The notes under the pieces: model-generated
Databases searched by the model: none
Seen by the model: the letters and a program-made list of their open reading frames with translations, nothing else
What the model was told of the DNA's origin: nothing
Assembly (NCBI GenBank): GCA_002269645.1
Contig: NIVC01003089.1
Span: 56,202 to 120,201, forward strand
From: Macrostomum lignano
Lineage: Eukaryota
Direction of reading: 5' to 3'
DNA: 64,000 nucleotides
Program-made: the position numbers and the translations under genes
Part shown: positions 48,075 to 64,000 of the stretch, piece after piece
Numbering within the stretch: the first letter of the stretch is position 1
Layout: each line of letters starts with the position of its first letter

Positions 48075-49208
48075 AGGGCTTTATAGCACCTGGGCTTTAC
48101 ATGTAGCACCAGGGCTTTAACACCAAGCTGGAGCTTTAGCACTAGGGGCTTTAGAGCGCACCAGGGCTTTAGCACCAGGGGCTTTAGCACTAGGGGCTTC
48201 CGCATCAGGGGCTTTAGCACCAGGGGCTTTAGCATCAGGGGCTTTAGCACCAAGGGCTTTAGCATCAGGGGCTTTAGCACCAAGGGCTTCCGCATCAGGG
48301 GCTTTAGCACCAAGGGCTTCCGCATCAGGGGCTTTAGCACCAAGGGCTTCCGCATCAGGGGCTTTAGCACCAGGGCTTTAGCACCAAGGGGCTTAGCACC
48401 AAGGGCTTCCGCATCAGGGGCTTTAGCACCAAGGGCTTCCGCATCAGGGGCTTTAGCACCAGGGGCTTTAGCATCAGGGGCTTTAGCATCAGGGGCTTTA
48501 GCACCAGGGGCTTTAGCACCAAGGGCTTCCGCATCAGGGGCTTTAGCACCAAGGGCTTCCGCATCAGGGGCTTTAGCACCAAGGGCTTCCCATCAGGGGC
48601 TTTAGCACCAGGGCTTTAGCACCAAGGGCTTCCGCATCAGGGGCTTTAGCACCAAGGGCTTCCGCATCAGGGGCTTTAGCACAGGGCTTTAGCACCAGGG
48701 GCTTTAGCACCAAGGGCTTCCGCATCAGGGGCTTTAGCACCAAGGGCTTCCGCATCAGGGGCTTTAGCACCAGGGGCTTTAGCATCAGGGGCTTTAGCAT
48801 CAGGGGCTTTAGCACCAGGGGCTTTAGCACCAAGGGCTTCCGCATCAGGGGCTTTAGCACCAAGGGCTTCCGCATCAGGGGCTTTAGCATCAGGGGCTTT
48901 AGCACCAGGGGCTTTAGCATCAGGGGCTTTAGCACCAGGGGCTTTAGCACCAAGGGCTTCCGCATCAGGGGCTTTAGCACCAAGGGCTTCCGCATCAGGG
49001 GCTTTAGCACCAGGGGCTTTAGCATCAGGGGCTTTAGCATCAGGGGCTTTAGCACCAGGGGCTTTAGCACCAAGGGCTTCCGCATCAGGGGCTTTAGCAC
49101 CAAGGGCTTCCGCATCAGGGGCTTTAGCACCAAGGGCTTCCCATCAGGGGCTTTAGCACCAGGGCTTTAACACCAAGGGCTTCCGCATCAGGGGCTTTAG
49201 CACCAAGG
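48075..49208. repeat. 15-bp minisatellite with a 120-bp higher-order period
   Basis: Units AGCACCAAGGGCTTC, CGCATCAGGGGCTTT, AGCACCAGGGGCTTT and AGCATCAGGGGCTTT in a recurring order. Confidence 0.93.
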
Positions 49209-49576
49209 GCGCCATGATATAATTTTGCCAGTCAAATTACATGTAGGTAGAGTGCCGAAAGTCCTTCAAGCGTCCTGCAGGCTATCCCCTAAGCTTCAAG
49301 TGCGATTTTAAAGCCACAATTGTCTAAGACCATTCGGAAGAGGTACATGTTGTTTCTAAATAGAAAAAAGGTAACTGAGTAGTAGGGGAAATGTGGACTC
49401 TGCCGCAGGAATTTCCGTGGGAAAACCACGGGCCTGTAGTGTGTAAACATAGCGCCTATGTAAATGCATTGGTGGACTCTGCCGCAGGGAAAGCCATGGA
49501 AATTCCATGGGGCCTTAGTGAGAGAACATAGGCCTATGTTTTTCTATTGCTGTATGTCTGCTGCAGTGGTTTAGTC

Positions 49577-49584
49577 TATATAAG
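49577..49584 (+). promoter_or_regulatory. TATA-like box upstream of the first element ORF
   Basis: TATATAAG about 80 nt before ATG 49661. Confidence 0.45.
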
Positions 49585-49660
49585 GACCAAAAAATCTCTT
49601 TGATTCATGAAAAAACGATTTTTTTTCGACGAGATAGTTTATTCTGTTAGATTTTAAGTC

Positions 49661-50425
49661 ATGGACATCGGCGAAGGATATAAACTCCAAATACAGGAGT
49701 ATGAAGGAGTTATGTTCATTGCTATCAGAAAATTTTACCGACATGGCAGCACTGCGAGTTTGAAACCTGGAGTCCCCGGCTTCAATTTGAACATCCGTCA
49801 GTGGGAGAAGCTCAAGGAGTTGAAGCGATCGCTTGTCAAGGCGGCCTTGGACAAACAGCCAAAGGTTGTCAAACTCGGCTTCGATAAGTTCATCGAAGTG
49901 AAAAACGGCATTATCTGGTTAAAGCGATTGCCGGAGGACTGCTGCGACGAGTTTCTTAAGCGGAACACCGTGCCGCTGACACCGCCGCTGTGGCGAAAGC
50001 TGTGGCAGTACGCGGATTGGATCGACGAGCAGCTATCGGCTCCACGTGAGATTTCCGATGCATACGAGCTGGAGTCGGGATCTTCCTCCGACAGCATCGA
50101 AAATGAAGACGATGCTGGCGAAAACGCGGAAGAGACCAAGCCGGTAGTGAAGGCGGAGGACGATGCTGCTGCTGCTGCTGGCGAGGCTGGCATGCCATCC
50201 AATCTGCAAATCGACACAGCGTTTGCCACTTCAACGCCTCTGCAACTGACCAAGCCTGCAGCTGGAGCGATTCCTCGGCAGGACACTGATCTGCAAGAGG
50301 ACCCAGTCTGGTACCAGTTCCGAGCTCAAACAGCCGCCGCTGAGAACGCCAGGAAACGCAAGCAGCCGCCATTCGCTCTGCGCAGATTGGATGCCATGAA
50401 GCTGCCCAGGCCGTGCTTCGACTGA
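49661..50425 (+). CDS. PC4/Sub1-like ssDNA-binding protein, probably two tandem PC4 domains plus an acidic tail
   Basis: YEGVMFIAIRKFY....KPGVPGFNLNIRQWEKLKE fits the PC4 pattern (IDIREY..KPG.KGISL...QW..L); a second degenerate copy ends VPLTPPLWRKLWQYADWIDEQL. Confidence 0.75.
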   Translation: MDIGEGYKLQIQEYEGVMFIAIRKFYRHGSTASLKPGVPGFNLNIRQWEKLKELKRSLVKAALDKQPKVVKLGFDKFIEVKNGIIWLKRLPEDCCDEFLKRNTVPLTPPLWRKLWQYADWIDEQLSAPREISDAYELESGSSSDSIENEDDAGENAEETKPVVKAEDDAAAAAGEAGMPSNLQIDTAFATSTPLQLTKPAAGAIPRQDTDLQEDPVWYQFRAQTAAAENARKRKQPPFALRRLDAMKLPRPCFD

Positions 50426-50590
50426 TTGCAGACCCTCTGACATTGAGACAAACTCTGTGCTACGAGCTATTTATCCAGACCTGCTTTCCATCTCTTTGTT
50501 TGAAAAAAAATATATGCTTGCTTTCACATGCGCTATGCATTTTCAATGTCTTAAGAAAACCTAAAAAAAAATGTTTCTTTGTTTCCGAAA

Positions 50591-51658
50591 ATGGAAAAAA
50601 TTTATTTCAACCCAAATCAGCCTGCGAGCTATTGCAGTTCTTCAAAACTGCAACCTGAACTGCGAAAAAGAGGCGAGCATATTGGAGTCAAGAGCATTGA
50701 GCAGTGGCTAAGTCAGCAGCCAGTACACACTCTGCATAAGCCAGCTAGAGTACGATTTCCAAGGGCGCCAATAATAGTGAGAGCCATTGATGATCAGTGG
50801 GAGATGGATCTGGTGGAAATGATTCCATTTGCAAAGTATAATCGCGGGCATAAATACATTCTCACCTGCATTGATGTTTTGTCTAAATTTGCAATGGCCA
50901 GAGCACTGAAGTCTAAGAGCGCGGCAGAAGTGAAATCTGCGTTTGAGAGCATGCTGAAGAGCTCAAAGCGGCAGCCGCGCACTGTCCGCACAGATCAGGG
51001 AAAGGAGTTTGTCAACGCAATTTTTCGCCAGTTCTGCATAGACCGGGGGATTCTGGCGTTTCCAACTAGCAGTGTGCACAAAGCAGCCATAATTGAAAGA
51101 TGGAATCGAACTTTAAAAAGCAAGATGTGGCGTTACTTTACTCACAACAGCACTCTACAATGGCTTGATGTGCTGCCTAAACTGGTCAAGTCCTATAACA
51201 ATACTTTCCACAGAAGCATCAAGACTACACCAATGAATGTCAGCAAAGCAAACGAGACTGAAGTGTGGATGAACCTTTATGATGGGAAAGCGATTGAGAC
51301 AGTTGAGAAACTGAGAAAACCGAAGTTCTGTGAAAACCAATCAGTGCGGATTTCCAATGCACCCAGACTCTTCAGGAAGGGATACAAGGCGAACTGGAGC
51401 GAAGAGGTGTACACCATAGTGTCTAGGGCACCAAAGCATTATCCCTACATGTACAGGATTCGAGACATGAAGGGGGAAGACATAAGAGGCCTCTTCCACG
51501 AGCATGAGCTGCAAGCTGTTCCGGACTCGCAGCGGCTGTATGTAATCGAGAAGGTTCTGAAGACTGAGAAGCGGAAGGGTAAGATCCGATATCTCGTCAA
51601 GTGGGCCGGCTACAAGTCCACTGACTGGGTGGATGAGAAGGACTTAAGAAAAGTGTAA
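50591..51658 (+). CDS. Polinton retroviral-type (DDE) integrase with C-terminal chromodomain
   Basis: QWEMDL, VRTDQGKEF, IERWNRTLK; YNNTFHRSIKTTP; C-terminal YVIEKVL...YLVKWAGY..DW. ATG at 50591. Confidence 0.96.
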   Translation: MEKIYFNPNQPASYCSSSKLQPELRKRGEHIGVKSIEQWLSQQPVHTLHKPARVRFPRAPIIVRAIDDQWEMDLVEMIPFAKYNRGHKYILTCIDVLSKFAMARALKSKSAAEVKSAFESMLKSSKRQPRTVRTDQGKEFVNAIFRQFCIDRGILAFPTSSVHKAAIIERWNRTLKSKMWRYFTHNSTLQWLDVLPKLVKSYNNTFHRSIKTTPMNVSKANETEVWMNLYDGKAIETVEKLRKPKFCENQSVRISNAPRLFRKGYKANWSEEVYTIVSRAPKHYPYMYRIRDMKGEDIRGLFHEHELQAVPDSQRLYVIEKVLKTEKRKGKIRYLVKWAGYKSTDWVDEKDLRKV

Positions 51659-51688
51659 GATACCGACATTGTGCAGCCATTCCCAACT

Positions 51689-52498
51689 ATGAGAAGCATC
51701 ATCATTTGTAGCGAAAATGCTGAAGGTACTCCTAGTGACTTTCATTTTCACCTGCCTTCATCTATTTACTTGGATCGAAATGTGGACTATGAGGCAGGTC
51801 TGGCTGAAATCCATCTGCCTGCTGCATGGTTCAATGTTGACGAGCCTTACTGCTTCACTGTCTCAGATGGAAGAGAGCATGAGGCCCTGGTTCTTCAACC
51901 CGGACGCTTTGCTAGAGTGGAGGAACTGGTGGAACGCCTGAATGAGCTGCTGGCCAACTCTGAGTCACTGTTCTTCGATGCAATGAGCGAAAGGGAGTCT
52001 GAAATGGAAGCTGATGAGTCCGGTTTAATGGGGCGGAGCAGCGCTAGAGATATTGGCATAAAGTTTGAAATCCAAGAGTTGAGAACAGTAGTGCTCAACA
52101 ACACGGCTCGAGCAGAATTGTTCCTTCCATCAAGTAAAATTCTGCAGTGGCTGGGATTCGGAAACCAGCCTGTGAAGATCCCACCCGGACGGCAAGTGTC
52201 ACTCTGCTGCATCGGTTGTCCGCCCACCAACCTGATCAACTTGCACTGCAGCATTGTGGAGCGAACAAACTGTAACTGGAACTCCGTGCTGCGAACTGTG
52301 AGCATGTCATCCGATGTCGAATGGGGCAGCTACATGAGCAAAGTGTTTAAGAAAGCAATTTTCTTCCCGATTCAGAAAGCTAATTTTCTACATGGCATTA
52401 GATTTCAACTGCGTGACATCTTTGGCTACTCACTGACTGCTCGGAGCAGCAGCCCTGTTCTGCTCACAGTTCATATTCGGGAAAGGCTAATACAATGA
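51689..52498 (+). CDS. Minor capsid protein (penton/PX-like, single jelly-roll)
   Basis: F.F.LP..I.L...YEAGLAEIHLP..WFNV N-terminus and VLRTV...F.PI....I.FQLRDIFG...VLLTVHIR C-terminus typical of Polinton minor capsid proteins; position in the core block. Confidence 0.8.
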   Translation: MRSIIICSENAEGTPSDFHFHLPSSIYLDRNVDYEAGLAEIHLPAAWFNVDEPYCFTVSDGREHEALVLQPGRFARVEELVERLNELLANSESLFFDAMSERESEMEADESGLMGRSSARDIGIKFEIQELRTVVLNNTARAELFLPSSKILQWLGFGNQPVKIPPGRQVSLCCIGCPPTNLINLHCSIVERTNCNWNSVLRTVSMSSDVEWGSYMSKVFKKAIFFPIQKANFLHGIRFQLRDIFGYSLTARSSSPVLLTVHIRERLIQ

Positions 52499-52863
52499 AC
52501 TACCAACAGCTGATTCGTCAGTATTCAGGGACTCTGGCAGGAAGCCAAAAGCCGGCGCTCTATGGCTGTGGGAGTTTTCCAGGAATCATGACTTACCAGC
52601 CTCCTCCAGAAGCTTCCACAAAGTCAATATCGCTATCAAAGCCAGCCCATACCACCGCCAGCGGTAGCAGCAGCAACAGCAGAAGCAATAGAAACAGACC
52701 AAAGCAGCGACTAGTCAAACAGGGCAGTAAGAAGCAGACAAAAAAGAAGAAAAAGAGTAAGACGGAGAATCACCGAAAAGAAGCCAGTCAGGGCGAAATA
52801 AACCTAAGAAAGGGAGGTCTAAAACTCAAAGCAAGAAAACAGGCAAAGGAAAGCAAAAAGTGA
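52495..52863 (+). CDS. Small basic protein, putative genome-condensing core (pVII-like) protein
   Basis: K/R-rich C-terminal half, LYGCG motif, lies between the minor and major capsid genes, ATGA overlap with the penton stop. Confidence 0.55.
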   Translation: MNYQQLIRQYSGTLAGSQKPALYGCGSFPGIMTYQPPPEASTKSISLSKPAHTTASGSSSNSRSNRNRPKQRLVKQGSKKQTKKKKKSKTENHRKEASQGEINLRKGGLKLKARKQAKESKK

Positions 52864-52906
52864 GCAAAAAGACTGTGAAACGTGTTCTGGACTCGCTCTC
52901 ATAGCA

Positions 52907-54190
52907 ATGGCTTACGGATTCAACCCGAGACTCGATTTGTTCAAGTCCCCCATGCTGCAGACTGCCATTGAAAAATCCACATATGTTGATATTCACCCCG
53001 TGAACTCTATTGCTACTAACTCACCTATTGAATTCGACTGTCATCCATCGGCTGATGAGTACACTGATCTGCTGAGCTCATTCCTGTATATTCGCTGTCG
53101 CCTAGTCCGGCTTGGCGGGGCTTTGATGAGGGAGGAGGTTCGAAATGCCGATGGAGTTGTCACTGAGCGCAGAGACAGTGGGGTGCACCCAGAAAACTTT
53201 GTCCTGTCTACGGCATTCTCAGATGTAATCGTGAGCATCAACCAGCGCATTGTATCAGGTGGAGACCAGCTCTACCCCTACCATGCCTACCTAAAAGCTC
53301 TCATGGGCTCATCCGATGCTCAGCAGTTAAAGTTCTACCCCGCCGGATTCCTGGAACCCGAAACTGCTGCTGAGGGGCATGCCGAGAGACACAGGGAGTC
53401 CCGCTGGGTGGAGTATGCGGGACCGCTGCTCAGCGACATCTTCCAGTGTCCTGTTCTGCTGCTGAACAATTTACACCTGCACATCAAGCTGATGCCCAGT
53501 GATGCTGCATTCGCCATTCGAACCCCAGATGATAACAACACAGCCTACCGAATGGAAATCTCCCACTGCATTCTGAACCTGCGCCGAGTCAAAGTGGCAC
53601 CTCACATCAGCCTGGCGCATGAACAGGGACTGACCAATCAGAACGCACTCTACCCCATCGAGCGAACCGAAATGCAAAACTTTATTCTACCCCAGGGAAT
53701 TCAGTCAAAAAACATTGAAGGATTCACCCATGGCAAACTGCCGAAGTTCGTTATGCTGGTCTTCGTGAACCACCGAGCCTTCAATGGCCATCACCATTCC
53801 AGCCCTTTCGAGTTCCAGAGCTTCAACCTCAGCCAGCTAGCACTAAAGAAAGGTGGTGAAGCCATGTGCCACGCTGCATTTGCACCTGAGAATAATTCAT
53901 TCGTGAGAGAGTACTTGCACTACCTGAAAAGCTGTCAGTCAGCCAGCCCTAGCAACTCGGTTCCGTGGGTCCCCTACCAGTTGTTCTCCAACGGCAACAC
54001 AGCTTTCGCATTCGATCTCACGCCTGAGGGAGCGGCCCTGTGGTACGGACAGAAGGAGGGCAATTTGCGGCTGGAGATTCGCTTCCGACAGGCCCTGGAG
54101 GAGCCTGTATCTCTGATTGTTATGTGCCTGTATGACTCACTGATTGAGGTCACCAAGCACAGGGAGATTCTGTTAGATTTTCCATCCTAG
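52907..54190 (+). CDS. Major capsid protein (hexon/PY, double jelly-roll)
   Basis: LDLF..P.LQTAIE.S.YVDIHPV....SPIEF, YPYHAY, LNLRRVKV, SPFEFQSFNLSQL, FAFDLTP, GNLRLEIRF motifs; 427 aa, intact. Confidence 0.93.
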   Translation: MAYGFNPRLDLFKSPMLQTAIEKSTYVDIHPVNSIATNSPIEFDCHPSADEYTDLLSSFLYIRCRLVRLGGALMREEVRNADGVVTERRDSGVHPENFVLSTAFSDVIVSINQRIVSGGDQLYPYHAYLKALMGSSDAQQLKFYPAGFLEPETAAEGHAERHRESRWVEYAGPLLSDIFQCPVLLLNNLHLHIKLMPSDAAFAIRTPDDNNTAYRMEISHCILNLRRVKVAPHISLAHEQGLTNQNALYPIERTEMQNFILPQGIQSKNIEGFTHGKLPKFVMLVFVNHRAFNGHHHSSPFEFQSFNLSQLALKKGGEAMCHAAFAPENNSFVREYLHYLKSCQSASPSNSVPWVPYQLFSNGNTAFAFDLTPEGAALWYGQKEGNLRLEIRFRQALEEPVSLIVMCLYDSLIEVTKHREILLDFPS

Positions 54191-54213
54191 GAGTACGCTG
54201 GCGCAACGCTAAT

Positions 54214-54732
54214 ATGGATGCTTTTCAACTGCTTAAACTGGCTAAAAGCTTTTTGCCACAAAATAACTGTTTAATTATTGTCTTGAATTCAATAAATAAA
54301 ACATCTTATGCTTTAAACTTTATTCAGCGAGCAACTCTCAAAAGAAATTTATCTCGATGTAAGTTTATTTTCTTTCTGCTTCAGTACAGCTCATCCTTCG
54401 GTCACTGGGTGGTTTGTTATGCTGATAAGGAGAATTCCATAGAACTCTTTAACTCTCTGGGCTGGGACTCCAGCACTTTAGAGATCATTCACAGAGCACT
54501 GAAATCCTTTTGGTATTCTCCATTCTACTTACGTAGCAATGTGAATCGAATTCAGAGCTGTGACTCTGCTAAATGCGGTTTGTTCTGTCTCTTGTTTGCC
54601 TATCAAAAGTTTCGTTTCAAGCGCTCGTTTGAGTGGGTTCTGCGGCACCTCCATGCAAATCAGCAGAGCCACTTGAATGAGAGAATGCTGCAAAGGTTTG
54701 AGAGTTGCTTAAGAAAAAAGAAATTTAATTAG
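54214..54732 (+). CDS. Adenain-like cysteine maturation protease
   Basis: GHWV (His), ELFNSLG (the usual acidic position is N), IQS..S.KCGLFCL (oxyanion Gln and catalytic Cys). Confidence 0.88.
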   Translation: MDAFQLLKLAKSFLPQNNCLIIVLNSINKTSYALNFIQRATLKRNLSRCKFIFFLLQYSSSFGHWVVCYADKENSIELFNSLGWDSSTLEIIHRALKSFWYSPFYLRSNVNRIQSCDSAKCGLFCLLFAYQKFRFKRSFEWVLRHLHANQQSHLNERMLQRFESCLRKKKFN

Positions 54733-54765
54733 ACTTTCAAAATTAGGGATTTAGCTCAACAGGCG

Positions 54766-55419
54766 ATGGAAACACGTGAGCGGATAAACTGTTATGATGT
54801 GCGCCTGCGACAGGGAAGCTGCATGATTGTCAGCGGGCCTACAAATGCAGGAAAGACAACCTTCGTGAAACATCTGATACAATACAAGGATGTCCTGTTT
54901 GATGTGAAGCCTGGGAGAGTTCTGTGGTACTACGGGATTTCACAAGCAGCACACTCTGAGCTCAGCAGTCTCGGCGTGCACCTGCAGCAGGGATTTCCCA
55001 GCAGTATCGAGACCGCACTGAGACCCAATGACCTGGTTGTATTTGATGACCTGATTGAAGAAACTTCCAATTCTGCTGCAATGCGAAATGTTTTCACTGG
55101 AATTGCCCATCATTTGCCCTGCTTTCTGGTTATGCTGACCCAAAATGTATTTTTTAAAGGGAAGGAGTTGCGAACAATGAGTCTGAATGCGATGTACTTT
55201 GTGATCATGAAGAACCCCAGAGACCAGCTGCAGATTGCAGCGCTGGGCAGGCAGTGCTTTGCTGAGAAGCCCGGATTTCTGCTGTCAGTGTTCAAGCACG
55301 TGACATCGCACGGCAGGGGAGCCTACCTGCTCCTGGATTTTCACCCTTCCACCCCTGATGAGCTGCGGGTCCGGGCTCGAATCCTGCCCAATCAGCGACC
55401 CCACCTGGTTTACACTTAA
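54766..55419 (+). CDS. A32/FtsK-HerA-like DNA packaging ATPase
   Basis: Walker A GPTNAGKT, Walker B LVVFDD, HH...LTQN, RTMSLNAMYFVIMKNPRD. Confidence 0.95.
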   Translation: METRERINCYDVRLRQGSCMIVSGPTNAGKTTFVKHLIQYKDVLFDVKPGRVLWYYGISQAAHSELSSLGVHLQQGFPSSIETALRPNDLVVFDDLIEETSNSAAMRNVFTGIAHHLPCFLVMLTQNVFFKGKELRTMSLNAMYFVIMKNPRDQLQIAALGRQCFAEKPGFLLSVFKHVTSHGRGAYLLLDFHPSTPDELRVRARILPNQRPHLVYT

Positions 55420-55436
55420 GAATAACAGCCGAGATT

Positions 55437-55784
55437 TTGCCATTTGTTCTATATTCTGCAACACTAATGATAATGGAAACCTTTGACTCACATGAAAGTT
55501 TGTTTGATGTTCTCGCGTCACCGAAATATTCCATCAGCTTTAAACGTCTGTTGATCAGAGCGGGTCCAAAAGCCGTACGTGAATTTCTCATTGAGGCCTG
55601 CTACAACCTATTGCAAAACACTCTGTCGTTCTCACTCACTCAAAAGGCAGCGCTGGTGAAGCAAAAGCAAATAATCCGCAAAATTTCTACACATAGAAGA
55701 GCTGCGGATCTGCTAAATACGGGTTTTATCAAAATTCTCTACATTCTAATAAAGCTAGTGAAGAAAAAGAAGCAAAATGAATAA
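55437..55784 (+). CDS. Conserved small Polinton protein (likely start at an internal ATG near 55468)
   Basis: Resembles the recurring Maverick ORF pattern L..L....R..I..A....I..L.E..YN.L...L...QK..L.K.K..IRK with a hydrophobic C-terminal helix; recalled pattern, not searched. Confidence 0.6.
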   Translation: MPFVLYSATLMIMETFDSHESLFDVLASPKYSISFKRLLIRAGPKAVREFLIEACYNLLQNTLSFSLTQKAALVKQKQIIRKISTHRRAADLLNTGFIKILYILIKLVKKKKQNE

Positions 55785-56498
55785 GTTCTCAGAAATGGTT
55801 CTGATCCCCAAGTCAGAGTACGACATGCTCACACAGAATTTGAAGCCAGTCGAGTCTGAAATGGACACTGCTGTGAGATATGCGCAGAGGAAATGCAATG
55901 ATATTTTGCTTGCCGAGGATTGCCCAGACGATGTGAAAGCTGCCATGTACCATGATGCGATGAAGAGTTTGCTGGTCAAGCGCAAGCGGACTGGAAAGGA
56001 TGGTGCGGTACCTGCGAGTGATGCAAAGATGCTGAAAACAGATATTGCACCAAGCAGCTGGGGGGAAAAGATCACCCAATCCGTGCCGCAGAAGTTTAAA
56101 GCGAGAGCCCGCAGTCTATGGGCCATCCTATCTGGCAATCCTCTCTGATTCGGGTGTCCGAAAATGGCGAGGCGCAAATTTCTGGGAAGACAATACCCTC
56201 CTCAAACATCCTGGATTTGTTTCACAGTGCGGTGAGGGATTCGAAATGTGCCAGCGAGCCGGTAGGCTGGAGTGAGTTTGTCTCATTGCTTCAAGACAAA
56301 AAGCTTAACATCCCAGCTTCGGCTATAGGAAAGTCAGTAAGGCAGCTAATTTCTAAACCGGCTGTTTCTCCAGAGGCCACCCCTGCACATCATACAGTTA
56401 AGGGATTCGGGAGTGGGAGAGCCTGGCTACACCTGAGCAGGAAAAAAAACTATTTAAGAAGGGGAACTGAGTCGGCTTCCCGACATCTTGCGTCTTGA
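55777..56498 (+). CDS. Conserved uncharacterised Polinton ORF split by one frameshift at ~56140
   Basis: ORF 55777-56148 (MVLIP...SVPQKFKARA) continues in frame 56118-56498 (SNILDL...PVGWSEF..LL...NIP..AIG); restoring one nucleotide in CCTCTCTG joins them. Confidence 0.65.
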
Positions 56499-56510
56499 AA
56501 CCATCCGATC

Positions 56511-57356
56511 ATGAACTATATTGACTTCCAAGGCTTCCCACGCGAGAGATCGAGCAGAGATTTCGTTGTGAAGGAGCTGGCCATTGCCCAAGTCCGGGCT
56601 GGCAGTTACCATATCACTCATCACGTGTACGCCTCTCCGTTCTCATGGGACAGAATCTCACCTGAGATGCAAGTACATTACAGAAAGCTCTCAAAGAATT
56701 TGCATCATTTCAAGTGGACAGATGGATCCCGACCGTACATGCATTTGGCTAATGACATTCTAAACATTGCTTACGGTCCCACCTGGACAAGCGGGGTGAA
56801 AAAGTCCATCTTTCTGACTGAGCTGCTTGGCAGACAGGTGTACAACCTAGAGGATCTGGGATCACCTTTGATTCAAGCATCTGATACTGGTTGTGCAGTG
56901 AAAAATGTATTACTGTACTACAACTGGCTGAAACCGAAGTTCTGTATCAACTTAAGAAGCGAGGTGTGCCCGCACCACTCAAAAGCTCGCAAAGACAGCA
57001 CCACTGACAGAAAGGACTCTCTAAATGAGTACACCTGCGACAGCCCTGCGAGTGACCAATCTGGTCGGCGGCGTGGATCTGAGACTTGCTGGAGACAGGG
57101 GTGCCCAGTTGCCTCTGCGGGAACTGGCTCTCAGCATGGCTCATGTCATCTATCGCCCCGTCTGGCCCCGAGTGCTTATCAAGAGGATGCGGAGTCCCAG
57201 AGTGACTCTATTGCTCTATCCGACTGGACAACTGAGTATCTGTGGCGCCCGGAGCTACTCGGCCTCAGTCAGGGCCGCTCGTCGCTTCGTGGCTATGCTG
57301 CATCGCAGAGTGCCTGCTCAACTGCTGCCTCATCAAACTGTGCATGTGCGGATTAA
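56511..57356 (+). CDS. DnaQ/DEDD-like exonuclease-fold protein; the true 3' end may be near 57024
   Basis: N-terminal IDFQGF...FVVKELA, HH.KWTDG, NLEDLG.P, CAVKNV..YNWL pattern; the last ~110 codons overlap the TBP ORF. Confidence 0.55.
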   Translation: MNYIDFQGFPRERSSRDFVVKELAIAQVRAGSYHITHHVYASPFSWDRISPEMQVHYRKLSKNLHHFKWTDGSRPYMHLANDILNIAYGPTWTSGVKKSIFLTELLGRQVYNLEDLGSPLIQASDTGCAVKNVLLYYNWLKPKFCINLRSEVCPHHSKARKDSTTDRKDSLNEYTCDSPASDQSGRRRGSETCWRQGCPVASAGTGSQHGSCHLSPRLAPSAYQEDAESQSDSIALSDWTTEYLWRPELLGLSQGRSSLRGYAASQSACSTAASSNCACAD

Positions 57357-57588
57357 AACTATTACTGCGCATGGGAAAATTGACTTGTGCAGAGCACTTC
57401 CCCTCGCTAATCTTGTGAACACTTTACCAAGTGCTCAATATGAGCCAGAATCATTTTCTGCTTTAATCTGCAAACTAAGCTTCTGCAAATGCCTGCTTTT
57501 TCACAATGGCTCATTCGTTCTCAGTGGTGCAAAAACAATGAGCATGCTAATTTCCGACTTTTCCTTGCTTGTCCGTTTTCTGTGCTAA
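57025..57588 (+). CDS. Divergent TATA-binding protein (TBP) homolog
   Basis: Two TBP repeats: TNLVG...Y.P...LIKRMRSPRVTLLLYPTGQLSICGARS and IKTITA...YEPESFSALI...LLFHNGSFVLSGAK; 187 aa, intronless. Confidence 0.88.
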   Translation: MSTPATALRVTNLVGGVDLRLAGDRGAQLPLRELALSMAHVIYRPVWPRVLIKRMRSPRVTLLLYPTGQLSICGARSYSASVRAARRFVAMLHRRVPAQLLPHQTVHVRIKTITAHGKIDLCRALPLANLVNTLPSAQYEPESFSALICKLSFCKCLLFHNGSFVLSGAKTMSMLISDFSLLVRFLC

Positions 57589-58302
57589 TAATAACCATAT
57601 GTTTCAACAATTAAATAAAAAGACGACAGCTGAACAAAAATATAATAATCTTGCATGCATATACCACGTATTAAGATGCGTGCATTTTAATCAATATACC
57701 TGAAAATCAGACTTCGATCGACTTTTTCTTTATTTTCATAACTGAAATCGCAATATTAGTTTGAGTATAGAAAATTTAATCAGACCACAACCAACTCAAG
57801 AAAAAAAGCACACCCATCACTCAGATTATGCACTGCTAAGACAAAAACGAACAAGAACTAGCAGAAATGAAAAAGGAAGCCAATATTTTTCAGATAATCA
57901 TTGGATAATGGTTACAAAAAATATGAGTAGCAAAGCTAGCAAAGATAAAAAAAGGACAGTAACTCAGTTCATTCAATTGTGCAAAAATTCAAGGATAATA
58001 AAAAAGAGGAAAGCCAGACCAATATGCCGCAAATTATTCCAACATGGCTTTCACAAGTTCGTATTGAAATAAATCTGGAACAACTCAACTCGAAAATGTT
58101 ACGTTCAGTTAGTTGCTTAGAGACTACAAATATGTAACTAACTGAATTGGCTCTATTCGTTCCAGCATTGTCATTATCATCATCATCCATCATTATCATC
58201 ATCATCATCATTCAGATTAATTAAACCACTGAAACAATTCATGGAGTACATAAGTAAAAGTCAATAAATTTCAACGCCAAGGTTACACAGATGTGCAAAG
58301 CA

Positions 58303-61300
58303 TCACTCTAAGCAGTCCGCTGTCCTTTTCGGACTACCCCTGATTAACAGCTGAAAGTGGCCGAACGGAAGACTTGAATTCGAGCCAGTCCACGCTCGCT
58401 TGTCCTCCCAGATACTGAGAGCGAGCTTACGTTGCTCAATGGTGAAAACGCGATGTTTCTCACTTCCAATTCGACGAACAGTGAGCGACAGCTTTGAAGC
58501 CCCCTTGAAAATCTTGACGTAGTCGTCGTGGGAGACTTCATTCTTCAGCACGCTTCGTTGGATGCCTTTTGCTTTTGCTTTGCATGCCGCCGAGCTTTCA
58601 GCGAGGAAAGAATAGAGCTTGGGCCTTAGCAGCACCCACTCAATCTGTTGCAGTCCACCAGCTTCATCTTTAATGCAGCCTAGCTTGGCCTTTAGCCGAT
58701 TCGAGAAGAGAGGATGATTAGTGAAAAATTGGAGGTGTCCAAGAGGCCTTCGGCATGCAGGATTGGCAGCACTTCTCTCTGCAAACTAAGGTTCTCTAAG
58801 CTCAAAAACAACGAGTCTGTATCGCCACCGCAAACTCGAACTCTTGCTCCATCACGGAATTCTAGCATGGGTTTTATTTTGTCATAGTAAAGTCGATACA
58901 TGATGATCTTGGAGCGATCTAGAACACACTGCCCCATGAAAATTGGCGATCAAGAGTTACTTCGCGCTTTTGAAGCTCAAAGATGCTGAGTGACGGCGTA
59001 ATGATTGTGAATGATGCGACATTTGGTTGAGAAGAAACAGTCTTGGCTTTTTTCTTGTCACTGCACACTCTGATGTCCCGCCGCTTGCGCACGTTCTCCA
59101 TTGTTTTGCCAAACAGGGAGTTATTTTTCAGTTTATAGAAATCCTTCTCGAAATCATTTTTCGCCATAGAGCGCTTCTCGCTATTCATCTTAATGTAGTC
59201 CGCGAAGACAGGTTCTTGCCTGAATTCGATCATCCTGTGGAGCCCATGCAACTTCATTCCGTGCGATAGATAGAATCGGAGAGCAGACGAGTGCAGTACA
59301 TAGGAAAACTTGTTGTGGCATGTGAGCATTAATTTTTGTACTCCACGGTAGCGCGCAACGGTAGGATTCTCAGTCGTGTTCGCGTCGGGCTGCTGCTGCT
59401 GATGATGCTGAGAATGATCATTGTCATGTTGAAGCAGTACCCATAATTCTCGCATGTACTGCGGAAATTCTTCAAAATTCGGACACCTTTTCTCTGGGGC
59501 GAATGGAAGATCCTCCGTTGCCGTGTGGATTTCGGCTGGGTAGAGCAAATCCGCTTCGACAAGGTAGCCGATTGGAGCGTCATCATCCAGGGAAAGAAAG
59601 CGGCACTCGGACCATGAGCAGAGCTCCTCTTGACTGAGCCAGCGAAAGCCACCAACAGGTAGGGGCATTGTGAGCGCATGACCATAAAGTTATTAGCATC
59701 AACAGCCAGTAAACTCCTACCTGCTGGTTCATTATCATCATCGCTACTTTCGCTCTGGACATGATGTACATTGACAAAAGACATTCCACCCCGAATTCCT
59801 TTTCAAACATTTTATACATCTCGAGGTCAGTTAGCAGTTCGATCTTGACTTGAGAAGACTTTAGTGCAGAAGCGAATGATAGGCCTGGAGTTGACACAAA
59901 ATGCACCGGATCTAGCTTGTCTTCCTGCAAACTCAGCCTTCGAAACCCTTCAAAGATATCTGCTAGTTGCCTGATGTCCAGCTCCAAGTAGCAGAGCATG
60001 TAATCGCGCAATGTTGTAGATTCGAATTCAGTCCAGGCCTTCTGCGCATGCCGATACTCCGCCTCGGTACAGTGGCTGTTGGTGAGTCGGTTAAAAAAGC
60101 TTTCTACTTTTGGTAGTTGGCGATCATCAAGCACATTCAAATTCGAGAGATAATCATAAGGGAAAACTCCCTTACTAAACAGTACATCGCTTGAAGATTT
60201 GGATACTTTGATCGCATCGCATTAGTGATGGACAGTTGTCCTCCGGCAAGTTCTTAATAAGTTGAGAAGACTGCTGTGTAGGAATTGCAGTGAGTCGATG
60301 AATTGTAGCGTGAAAAACAGGGGCTTTTTTACGCCATCTTTCTCATACTCATCAATCTGGAACTCGACCCTCATGGAGAGGTACGACTCAGGCAGTTTGG
60401 GGGATGACGCTCACCCTCCAACCAGTCATGTCACCCAGCGCAGTTGAGAAAATCAAATGCAGGTCATATCCGCGAAGATTGTGGAAAACTATTGGCAAAA
60501 ATCGCCGTTTTAGCCGAGCAAGCTTGTTACACGAAGCGCAGGCAGCACCCTTGTATTCACCGCTGAGGTGGTCGTGATCCCAGTGCTTGTCAGAAGATGA
60601 AATAAACACTGCATTGCATAAATAGCACTGTGGGCATCTTGAAAGCTGCGCCTGTTGTCATCTCTGTTTCTGTCAGCAATCTGATGACTAAACTCGGTAT
60701 TCCAACCATAAACTTCACGAGCAAGACGTTCGAGTGAGGCCAAAAACTGTTTCACGACAGAATTCGGATTGGGTCCGCTGCAGAGGAAAACATCCTCACT
60801 CGGCCTCAGAATTTTGCTGCTCATACCCTCTCTTGGAATAACAATGTAGCCAGCAGCTACAGGTACATGCTCAGTTAACTTGGTGACAGTAACTTCTCTT
60901 TCAGACTCACTGGTTCACGTGGGGTGTTCAGAGCTTCAAAATCTGCGTAGACAACAAATGGGGGACTGATTGTCTTTTCCCAAGCCATGAACTGCATTGT
61001 GTTGCTACTTGCATCAGGCATGCGCTCCATGATGGCTGGTTTCAGTTGAGGATTGCAGCTGTCTCGATGCTGCTCCAACTCTTCCTGGATCGAAACGGAG
61101 AAATGCACTTCTCACACCATTTGCGATTCCTCAGACCTTTTTTGCTGTTCAGGAGCCGGTCCAGGTTCGAAACTGCACACCAGTGTCCAGTCCCACAATT
61201 CTCATCACCACCATCATCATCAGCATCATCGGAGCTGGAGTTGCGAAGCAAGAGTAGAGGAATAACCTTGCGAGAGGCACAAATCCCAGGAAGAGGCTGG

Positions 61301-62049
61301 CGAATGACATAGGCCTCATCATCTTCCCAGCTAAAAACTGTGAAACAGATTTCGGAATTCTTTTCCTCTATAACGTCTAAATCGGAAATTGCGACTGGTA
61401 GTGCGATGCCGCTCAGATCGATTTCATCCAACCATCTGCTGTAAGTTGTTAGTCGATGGCAAGACTTCATCACACCTGGATCTCTGTTGTGCAGGTAAGC
61501 GAGACAGGCAAACAGAAAGCAATTGTTTCCATCGCTCGGTGGGTTGATTATGGCCTTCTTAACGGCCAGCTGATTGGGCAAAGAAAAATTCGCGCATCGT
61601 CCACGATAGTAGCGAATGCGATCAGTGAGGGCAGAGCACAGATCAAAATAGTTGATTTGCTCAACTATCCAACCGCTCCCATTTGAATTGTAGGCATCAA
61701 TCTTGCGTTCCAGCTCAGAAAACTGCTGCAACCACCACAATTCAAAATCTCTTAGATCAGAGAGAAGCTCAAGACCGCATGCGATCCACTTATCTTCTGC
61801 ATTGATTACCGCAGCTTCCTTGATTCTCACCATTCTGATGTTGAACTTGAGCTGCGCTCGAATAGAATTATTCTCGGATGAATCGAATCTCATCTCAACA
61901 GCCTGTAGCACTGCAAACTTCGTTGATGATAAAAAATGAAATGGCTCGAGACCTCTTGATGCTGGAGTGAAGCGTCTGACCTGCAGCGTGTCATCATGCG
62001 CACTAGCGTGAATAGCCGAGCTGAATTGAATGCCTGCATGAATTAGCAT
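58303..62049 (-). CDS. Protein-primed family B DNA polymerase (pPolB), interrupted by about ten 1-nt frameshifts in this sequence
   Basis: In order: GSGW, NNCFLFACLA, VYADFEAL, CYLC..DHDH..G.YKGAAC..CN, FHNLRGYD, FIDSLQFL, KGVFPYDY, DANN(LYG), KLKNNSLFGK, DTDSLF, RPKLYS, KAKGI, EDKR. Confidence 0.93.
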
Positions 62050-62135
62050 GTTGTTGGGTGTACGCGTTTCACTCGACAGTTAAAATTTATAAATCATAAT
62101 CCTAATTCCACCTCATTATGGTGCGGGAATCGGTT

Positions 62136-62690
62136 AATCAGGAATCAGTGAATCGGGAATCGGCGAATCGGAATCGGTGAATCAGGAATCGGCGAATCGG
62201 GAATCGGTGAATCGAATCGGAATCGGGAATCGGCGAATCGGGAATCGGTGAATCGGGAATCGCGAATCGGGAATCGGTGAATCGGAATCAGTGAATCGGA
62301 ATCGGGAATCAGGAATCGGTGAATCGGGATCGGGAATCGGAATCGGTGAATCGGAATCGTGAATCGGTGAATCGGAATCAGTGAATCGGTGAATCGGAAT
62401 CGGTGAATCGGAATCGGTGAATCCGTGAATCGGGAATCGGTGAATCGCTAATCAGTGAATCGGGAATCGGGAATCGGTGAATCGGTGAATCGGTGAATCG
62501 GATCGTGAATCGGGAATCGGAATCGTGAATCGGGAATCGGCGATCAGTGAATCGGTGAATCGGTGAATCGGAATCAGTGAATCGGTGAATCGGGAATCAG
62601 GAATCGGTGAATCGGCTGAATCGGTGAATCGCGAATCGGTGAATCGGTGAATCGGGAATCGGTGAATCGGCGAATCGGGAATCGGGTTTC
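62136..62690. repeat. Irregular (GAATCGG/GTGAATCG) short-unit satellite just upstream of PolB
   Basis: Directly visible; begins about 90 nt from the PolB ATG. Confidence 0.93.
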
Positions 62691-63477
62691 GTGACTACTT
62701 TTGCTTGTATTTATAGAGGGAAGAGTCTACTTTACTGGCTTTACTAATCACATTGGATTGACTCACTGGTTGGTTCGATTTCGATAGCAAAATTGGTAGA
62801 CTCAAGCGGCCGATCACTTGCTGATGATGATGATGAAGTGTCTCTCGAAGAAGCCATCTCGGTTCGGTTGATGACACGGCTTAGAGCATTTTCGATGAGA
62901 ATTAGATGAGGAAATTTGCTGAAATACATATTTGTGAAATTATTTTTTCTTGCAAAAGTAAATTCAAATCCCTAATTTGTGGATATACGCTCGTATTAAG
63001 TGTACATATTTTCGAAAGTTGTACTTCGGGTCTTGTCGTTACGTATTTCGGGTGTCATAATAAAGGGTCTATAAAGGTTTAATAAAAGGGTCTTATAAAC
63101 GAATTCTAAAATATTTCAAAATAACTCAAAGCTGAAAACTTTTCCAAAATTCTGCGCTTCATTGCGCTTTAAAACTTATATTTTAAAAATGCAATGATAC
63201 GCTACATTATTAGAAGCACAAGTTAAAGAAGGAGATTGCAAACCCAACAGAATCAAACCCAATCTGCATTCACACCCAAGCACAGCAATTGATCAACGCG
63301 CACTGCCTGCATAAATATGAACTTTAAAAATAGCAATGAGATGTTGAAAAGAAAAATAAACATTATTCACTTTTCAATTATACGGATAATCATCTCGCAA
63401 TTTAATTCAACACAAAATTTGCTAAATTAATATTTAACGACTGGTAATTAAATTATTAGTTTAGAATTGAGAATTGC

Positions 63478-64000
63478 TCAGGCGAATACGGAAAGCCCCT
63501 CCCAAGTCAATCCAATATTCACCCGTAACACTGTTGGGCAGAACCAGCTGGATGCAGAGAGGTGCTGGCTGCTGCACTTCATTAGCGGCGCAGGCTGAAC
63601 CTCAGTCTGGTGGCGTGGTGCAGGCGCGGCCTGAGTCCATGGCGTGAGGCCTGAGTGCCATATCGTGGTGGAGGCGCAGGCCTGGTCCATATCGCGTCAG
63701 TGTCGGACAGGCTGACTTCGCCGCAGGCTGAACCTCAGTCGGTGGCGGCGGTGGTGGAGGCGCAGGGCCTGAGTCCATATCGCGAATCACGTCGGACAGG
63801 CTGACTTCTGCCAGCATCCTGGCACGCTCCATATTTTTTTCCGGGAACAGGGATTGCACGCCGCTGCTGCTGCTGTTGCATTTCTTGCTGCTCCTGTGCT
63901 TCAGGCTCACCATCGAGGTTCTCGAAGAAAGCGGTGTCCAGCTCATTCAGCTCGAAGTCAGGGGTGCCACCTCCATCAGCAGCATCAAGCAGGGGAGCTC
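63478..64000 (-). CDS. Partial, frameshifted acidic/Gln/Pro-rich ORF, probably element cargo; 5' end outside the window
   Basis: Frames read ...DFELNELDTAFFENLDGEPEAQEQQEMQQQQQ.., then ..EVSLSDVIRDMDSGPAPPPPPPPTEVQPA..; GC-rich and intronless, with an internal imperfect duplication. Confidence 0.4.

Follow-up and report, generated by a model that had tools for sequence, protein, structure and literature searches.

The element and its genes

The window analysed here is a stretch of 64,000 nucleotides (nt) from Macrostomum lignano (contig NIVC01003089.1, positions 56,202 to 120,201 of the forward strand), and its end is occupied by an integrated Polinton/Maverick whose first base, at 49378, begins the Maverick end motif AGTAGT and which continues past the contig end at 64000. 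The element is present in many copies, and most of its particle and integration genes have the same non-standard, TATA-like box in front of them. This suggests that its late genes are switched on by a promoter key of its own, as is the case in some herpesviruses; the last gene of its plus-strand block encodes a TATA-binding protein (TBP). The left terminal inverted repeat (TIR; 49378..49512, plus strand) was placed by the end motif and by a 98%-identical sister copy, which has a TIR of 135 bp and a target duplication of 6 bp. Because the contig stops at 64000, the right TIR and the target-site duplication fall outside the window. Both ends are visible in two copies of the same family (family 1), with TIRs of 135 and 156 bp, each with matching 6-bp target duplications; these are the two of two family-1 copies in which both end motifs were listed.

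On the plus strand, the genes run from a tandem PC4-fold gene (49661..50425) through an rve integrase with a chromodomain (50591..51658), a putative minor capsid (penton) protein (51689..52498), a small basic, putative core protein (52495..52863), a putative major capsid protein (52907..54190), an adenain-type protease (54214..54732), a P-loop and putative packaging ATPase (54766..55419), open reading frame (ORF) 105 (55467..55784; kept in all sampled family-1 copies), two ORFs of 123 and 126 amino acids (aa) that are probably parts of one gene (55777..56498), and a DEDD/Maelstrom-like ORF (56511..57356) to the TBP gene (57025..57588). An AATAAA follows this last gene (57614..57619), at or shortly past the TBP stop in 7/7 copies. 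The protein-primed polymerase PolB lies on the minus strand (58692..62049), facing the plus block, and the gene order is identical in 7/7 other family-1 copies. A sequence-only reading of the window had described a plus block that begins with a PC4-like and ends with a TBP-like ORF, and profile matches bear this out (PF02229, 26.8 bits against a Pfam cut-off of 25; PF00352, 75.8 bits).

The same reading credited the element with a full virion and replication gene set, which stands for some of the genes. Pfam searches of the window proteins identify the integrase (PF00665, 60.2 bits; chromodomain PF00385 under the cut-off), the protease (PF00770, 22.6 bits against a cut-off of 21.3) and PolB (PF03175, 30.1 bits, above the cut-off). 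In the window copy PolB is split into at least five separate ORFs, while other copies have long stop-free PolB frames, and two small genes (the basic protein and ORF123/126) also appear broken. The capsid, penton and ATPase names, given from size, position and motifs, have no supporting family match in the Pfam and library searches. The putative ATPase is a P-loop ORF with weak matches only, and the packaging-ATPase profile PF04665 has no match in G000, the genome contig set searched, whose homologue labels are Macrostomum lignano; proteins 78-99% identical to those of the element carry the same species as their source label. The putative major capsid protein (427 aa), assigned from a Maverick motif, has 23 homologues, none named capsid, and a PDB sequence search with it gave no match. 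The DEDD/Maelstrom-like name was likewise given from a motif, and library searches with that ORF gave no match.

A shared box before the internal genes

The octamer YTTAAGAA precedes seven of the ten plus-block genes, always on the plus strand. It lies 41 nt before the integrase (CTTAAGAA, 50550..50557), 46 nt before the putative penton, within the integrase end (CTTAAGAA, 51643..51650), 149 nt before the basic-protein gene (TTTAAGAA, 52346..52353; at -149 in six family-1 lineages and at -155 in family 2), 58 nt before the ATPase (CTTAAGAA, 54708..54715), 52 nt before ORF105, overlapping the ATPase stop (CTTAAGAA, 55415..55422), 58 nt before the DEDD-like gene (TTTAAGAA, 56453..56460) and 74 nt before the TBP gene (CTTAAGAA, 56951..56958). 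A variant, CCTAAGAA, is found 104 nt before the major capsid gene (52803..52810, plus strand), where four other lineages have CTTAAGAA at -110 and family 2 has CATAAGAA at -104. Across the 7.3-kb plus block, YTTAAGAA occurs seven times on the plus and never on the minus strand, and 7/7 occurrences fall within 10-160 nt of a start; the shuffle mean is 0.56, and 0/1000 shuffles reach seven. Within coding sequence, five boxes were observed against 0.70 expected under synonymous shuffling (0/2000).

Box positions were also compared between families. The box stands before 7-8 of 10 genes in 6/6 family-1 lineages and before 5/10 genes in family 2, where the corresponding positions hold YATAAGAA; in family 4 the form is WTAAGC. 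For a pattern common to the families, [AT]TAAG[AC] at 20-115 nt before starts was counted, leaving out six further stretches with distant, decayed or partial PC4/TBP matches. The three TBP-bearing families in G000 have it before 6/10 (P 0.0001), 5/10 (P 0.007) and 4/8 genes (P 0.003), and family 3, with no TBP match, before 1/7. Ten metagenomic contigs with related capsid genes carry YATAAAC instead, 19 times on the plus and four times on the minus strand, at 15 of 26 hand-set starts (0/20000 placements); they have YWTAAGAA once on the plus and three times on the minus strand, and the window block has no YATAAAC. It appears that the position of the box is kept and its sequence is lineage-specific.

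The genes outside this set are preceded by other elements. Ordinary TATA boxes stand before the PC4 gene (TATATAAG, 49577..49584, plus strand; similar in 6/6 family-1 lineages) and before the right-arm gene, and TTTATAAA lies ~45 nt before PolB. The region 49378-49660, proposed earlier as the promoter to put into reporter assays, thus holds an ordinary TATA. More telling is YTTAAGAA ahead of the internal genes, a box that the sequence-only reading had overlooked. Trans-splicing to each gene was considered and rejected, as no consistent AG acceptor was seen by eye before the starts. No holder of the sequence among those listed is recorded as RNA. Three runs guessed to be RNA and one unlabelled run gave contigs over 30/30 bins with no joints and no start sites, and no conclusion was drawn from them.

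The box might not be a TBP site at all. It could mark the 3' end of the gene upstream, or the processing of its transcript, or it could serve a helper DNA virus as a late promoter. Baculoviruses have TAAG as their late motif, and four boxes coincide with the upstream stop or come close to it. Promoters common to virophages and their giant viruses are also reported (PMC11464507). However, the last plus gene ends with AATAAA and no box, the basic, capsid and TBP genes have their boxes within ORFs, 100-400 nt from the stops of those ORFs, the TATAAAC of the relatives lacks TAAG, and no helper virus is in evidence. We consider this explanation improbable.

The element-encoded TBP

The ORF at 57025..57588 is, on its predicted structure, a two-repeat TBP with the saddle fold, consisting of 187 aa and the core domain only. 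The PF00352 match falls in two stretches, one for each repeat, and the AlphaFold model (pLDDT 84) aligns with cellular TBPs at TM scores of 0.75-0.81 and 22-27% identity among the 40 PDB rows listed at E<1e-8. A structural check of both ORFs had been proposed with the original annotation, and in the predicted structures both the TBP and the PC4 fold were adopted. Both genes are under purifying selection: across six lineages the ratio of nonsynonymous to synonymous substitution (dN/dS) is 0.17 and 0.16 in the two TBP repeats and 0.09 in PC4 repeat 2, with PC4 repeat 1 saturated at synonymous sites. Profile searches of G000 found at least 152 TBP matches (150 of 237 candidates scored) and at least 150 PC4 matches (150 of 284 candidates scored).

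Residues of the element's TBP were mapped through the host TBP onto yeast positions. The viral protein keeps N69, V71, T112, L114, E186, E188, F190 and F207. In families 1 and 2 it has the changes F99 to P, F116 to Y, V122 to S/T, T124 to C, N159 to T, V161 to T/S and P191 to S/N, with the limit that the F99 column of family 2 differs between the two alignments used. Two basic residues that contact the DNA backbone are also changed (K120 to Q, K211 to S). The acidic TFIIB stirrup, read as sequence, is invariant (EPE in 11/11 rows). Of the four intercalating phenylalanines of a canonical TBP, F190 and F207 are kept, F116 is tyrosine and F99 is proline, so that the protein departs from a canonical TBP in this feature. 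These comparisons suggest a TBP with an altered DNA-binding face and an intact acidic stirrup. The changes at V122 and T124, which face box position 6, may be matched to the G at that position. In a study of the herpesvirus system (PMC12529657), the four phenylalanines kink the DNA, and T is preferred at position 1 of the box owing to the proline; loss of P191 fits a box that mostly starts with C.

The same changes could be read as decay. In such a decoy model the box would be a weak TATA read by host TBP, and the viral protein, lacking useful DNA binding, would soak up TFIIB or TBP regulators and so dampen host transcription or protect viral promoters. The change of F99 to proline and the losses at K120 and K211, together with an invariant acidic stirrup, agree with this, as do the TATA-like boxes of family 2 and a PDB entry in which, by its title, wild-type TBP is bound to a TATAAG variant (1qn5). 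On the other side, the DNA-face changes are common to families whose proteins are 35% identical, as would be expected of a retained function more than of decay. In addition, positions 1, 2 and 6 of the family-1 box deviate from TATA, and lineages vary in their box sequence. We regard the decoy model as unlikely.

In phylogenetic trees, the TBPs of families 1 and 2 and two unnamed proteins form one clade (100/94) outside eukaryotic TBP (99/96), and this clade falls, on long branches, among short unnamed TBPs that share N159 to T. Recent capture of the host TBP was rejected, as grouping with the host protein gave a p-AU of 0.014, subject to a long-branch caveat. Grouping with the host TRF2-like protein was not rejected (p-AU 0.055) and is absent from the best tree; that protein retains one of the four phenylalanines, in a pattern that differs from the viral one. 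A search of 1.84 billion representatives returned eight proteins at E<1e-30, seven near families 1 and 2 and one a plant TBP model with a duplication. The viral_contigs, metagenome_contigs and phages sets gave no genomic context for relatives of the TBP beyond G000. When the viral TBP was modelled together with a 160-aa host TFIIB exon, without alignments or DNA, the score was 0.00, which is no verdict, and the model was used neither way.

Several further observations concern these proteins. Unnamed TBPs of 170-195 aa with a shortened second repeat, on contigs of up to 26 kb, include P0056, P0066, P0081, P0086, P0109, P0155, P0061, P0116 and others, and are candidate TBPs of other small DNA viruses. 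Fifteen short unnamed TBPs lie near the clade, on contigs of up to 26 kb (9 of the 15 looked up). The public gene models P0009, P0010, P0011 and P0014 join the viral TBP to adjoining ORFs or host genes, and these fusions look like annotation artefacts. Across the first TBP repeat, the frame of the DEDD-like ORF has no stop for 110-128 codons in 7/8 copies, in both families (57025-57356 in the window; L036:8713-9098). The chance of this under synonymous shuffling is ~0.02 and 0.0005, yet the amino acids are not conserved (dN/dS 2.8).

A proposed two-stage programme on host RNA polymerase II

On balance, we think it somewhat probable that the viral TBP, together with a late box of its own and working like the herpesvirus vTBP-TATT system, drives the integrase and particle genes. 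Gene expression would then follow a two-stage programme on the host's own RNA polymerase II (Pol II), in which host TBP fires the genes with an ordinary TATA at the early stage. The viral TBP would then bind YTTAAGAA and recruit host TFIIB and Pol II, producing nested late transcripts of the integrase and particle genes that could share the AATAAA after the TBP gene. In family 1, the box before the TBP gene itself would provide positive feedback. Both the late timing and the promoter role of YTTAAGAA are what we infer here.

Several points weigh against this reading. Counted across the entire window, YTTAAGAA shows no enrichment (10 occurrences against 8.2 expected, reached in 30/100 shuffles), the motif was picked post hoc from the same sequences and given a broader form for families 2 and 4, the family-1 lineages are kin, and the one TBP-less family compared is distantly related and AT-rich. 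Tight gene packing means that a position before a start is often also a position at the previous stop. The protease and ORF123 have no box in the window copy, and the boxes of family 2 are often TATAAGAA, which host TBP can probably use. The family-1 TBP gene sits behind the very box that it would need for its own expression; TATATAAGAA is found one gene upstream of TBP, before the DEDD-like gene, in three other family-1 lineages, and family 2 has TATAAAAG before TBP. The proline at one of the four DNA-kinking positions also counts on this side. Finally, the ten metagenomic contigs, which are short, have no TBP or PC4 match, so that these data do not tie YATAAAC to a TBP.

A wider form of the two-stage programme may hold for many animal Polintons, and we put this forward tentatively, as a possibility that falls a little short of probable. 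It would be an autonomous early-to-late switch made of a single protein. The short viral TBPs would form an ancient lineage in which each member recognises a TATA variant of its own (YTTAAGAA, YATAAGAA, WTAAGC or YATAAAC) and recruits host TFIIB and Pol II to the particle genes.

Tandem PC4 and its proposed pairing with TBP

The PC4 ORF carries two beta-beta-beta-beta-alpha repeats in one chain at residues 1-130, followed by an acidic linker and a conserved basic C-terminal motif. Its model superposes on human PC4 at an rmsd (root-mean-square deviation) of 1.2 A over 64 residues and on Pur-alpha repeat I-II with Z 10.9 and rmsd 3.7 over 117 residues, and for this part of the protein the earlier label of a tandem PC4 holds. 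Compared with PC4/Sub1, the fold is shared and repeat 1 is ~28% identical to human PC4, but the element's protein has two repeats in one chain, as in Pur-alpha-like type I. It is also without the N-terminal regulatory region of PC4. The C-terminal motif, DPxWYxFR...RKRK...LRRxxAM (window 50270-50410; dN/dS 0.11), is possibly a nuclear signal or docking site.

Copies of the element commonly carry both genes, as a PC4 match lies 3-18 kb upstream on the same strand in 68/99 TBP copies, with 14 cut by the contig start and 17 undetermined (counted from the best 99 TBP rows against 121 PC4 rows in G000). Other PolB elements are also present in this set. Family 2, with a capsid ~40% identical to that of family 1 and ~40 TBP matches including fragments, has both genes on opposite strands. 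A complete family-4 element, read between its two end motifs, contains a TBP-like ORF and no PC4 match. This ORF was not found by the family-1/2 profile (hhalign probability 4%) and reached E 4e-4 with a broad TBP profile and an Atlas value of 0.95 to PF00352 clusters, with recognition under the usual mark; we count it as TBP-like and very divergent. It adjoins a dTMP-kinase-like gene (L078:2315-3621, G000:C4619), and a dUTPase follows PolB in this family. A PolB element at L059:6298-7959 (G000:C491) encodes a PC4-like protein in tandem form, while 30 kb of its sequence gave no match to a capsid, integrase or TBP, and family 3 has neither a TBP nor a PC4 match. In the family-3 and family-4 copies examined the target duplications do not match, so the ends of these elements may be chimeric.

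Since family 4 has a TBP-like gene without a PC4 match and the capsid-less PolB element has PC4 without a TBP match, TBP and PC4 do not form an obligate pair. The sequence-only reading had the element supplying two initiation factors to redirect or block host Pol II. The first half survives, as initiation by host Pol II is probably redirected by the TBP-fold protein. The role of PC4 as its counterpart is not supported, given the elements with a match to one of the two genes only. A joint initiation module, with PC4 holding the melted promoter, would agree with the presence of both genes in families 1 and 2, with the upstream PC4 of most TBP copies and with the ordinary TATA before PC4, which would make it an early product. 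We nevertheless find such a module improbable: family 4 has a TBP-like gene and the box with no PC4 match, the capsid-less PolB element has a PC4 match with no TBP match, and 7.4 kb separate the two genes, which in family 2 are also on opposite strands. In addition, a phage T5 homologue of PC4 is described as a replication factor (PMC7549692), and by analogy with it the element's PC4 is most likely a single-stranded DNA-binding protein of PolB strand-displacement replication and not a partner of TBP. The distribution of PC4 across the G000 families also points to replication rather than to a Pol II coactivator role.

Comparison with known systems

The closest parallel is ORF24 from Kaposi's sarcoma-associated herpesvirus and the TATTWAA box of beta- and gammaherpesviruses, as described in PMC12529657. 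In both cases a virus that lacks an RNA polymerase encodes a TBP fold and has a short, non-canonical box resembling TATA ahead of its late structural genes, putative ones in the element. However, ORF24 carries additional domains at its N and C termini, contacts Pol II itself, requires five other viral factors and has no acidic TFIIB residues (PMC12529657), whereas the element's TBP is a bare 187-aa core that keeps YEPE, is recognisable as a TBP by sequence and would use YTTAAGAA. Of the herpesvirus vTBP features, the element thus shows the TATA-like box before structural genes and lacks the extra domains and the loss of TFIIB residues. Compared with cellular TBP and TRF2, the fold (TM ~0.8), the stirrup and N69, V71, F190 and F207 are shared, but identity is 24-27% and F99, P191, N159, V161, V122 and T124 are changed. 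Nucleocytoviruses and mirusviruses also encode TBP folds, in far larger genomes, and mirusviruses encode RNA polymerase subunits of their own (PMC10132985); the element's TBP matches these structures more weakly (8-20% identity) than those of cellular TBP.

Among Polinton relatives, adintoviruses and MELD viruses have the same gene kinds. In the available parts of Starrett 2021 (PMC8502044), 'TBP' labels a gene in the Fig. 5 legend (MELD virus map), and MOSUB, SSDBP and MAEL appear in Supplementary Fig. S2 (adintovirus maps), without function or promoter analysis; the preprint says the same. Vertebrate Mavericks share the AGTAGT ends, the 6-bp target duplication and the intronless core genes, but their core genes include no TBP, and 'TATA' does not occur in the available text (Barreat and Katzourakis 2021, PMC8097293). 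Labels for a TBP and for PC4/Sub1-like genes (MOSUB, SSDBP) are already in print. The literature searched, as listings and abstract starts, gave no description of a TBP in a Polinton together with a promoter belonging to it, and supplements, Repbase and subscription papers may hold one. No TATA, TBP or PC4 terms were found in PMC11161782, PMC11131425, 10.64898/2026.06.19.733378, 10.64898/2026.10.13.758929 or 10.1101/2023.08.22.554363, and no TATA or promoter terms in PMC11296320.

A matched TBP and box would give Polintons, which have no RNA polymerase, a concrete mechanism for the timing of capsid genes, testable in a laboratory flatworm with one small protein and an 8-base oligonucleotide. 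If true, takeover of the TBP step by viruses would not be confined to the herpesviruses and the large DNA viruses in its origins, and would exist in a minimal version with the contact to host TFIIB retained. It would further provide natural altered-specificity TBP/promoter pairs, in which TBP substitutions map onto box changes, and evidence for a regulated viral cycle of Polintons without a helper virus.

Other features of the window and of related copies

A 60-nt direct repeat with internal palindromes lies within the left TIR (49393-49531), and a 15-nt tandem array adjoins the element (48104-49210). Many short tandem arrays and no element-gene matches were found in window positions 1-30900. 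Upstream of PolB is a GAATC-type tandem array (62117..62715), and pieces of the right-arm ORF (63478..64000, minus strand) follow where the element leaves the contig. In other copies, the right-arm ORF is Cys/His-rich and stands after an ordinary TATA (L029:5067-6101; L035:5031-6362), with a weak FAM76 match in one copy. The copy L026 (G000:C130) is a mosaic with respect to the window, as its capsid, ATPase and DEDD-like genes are 98-99% identical and its integrase, TBP and PC4 79%, 85% and 45% identical, pointing to module exchange between subfamilies.

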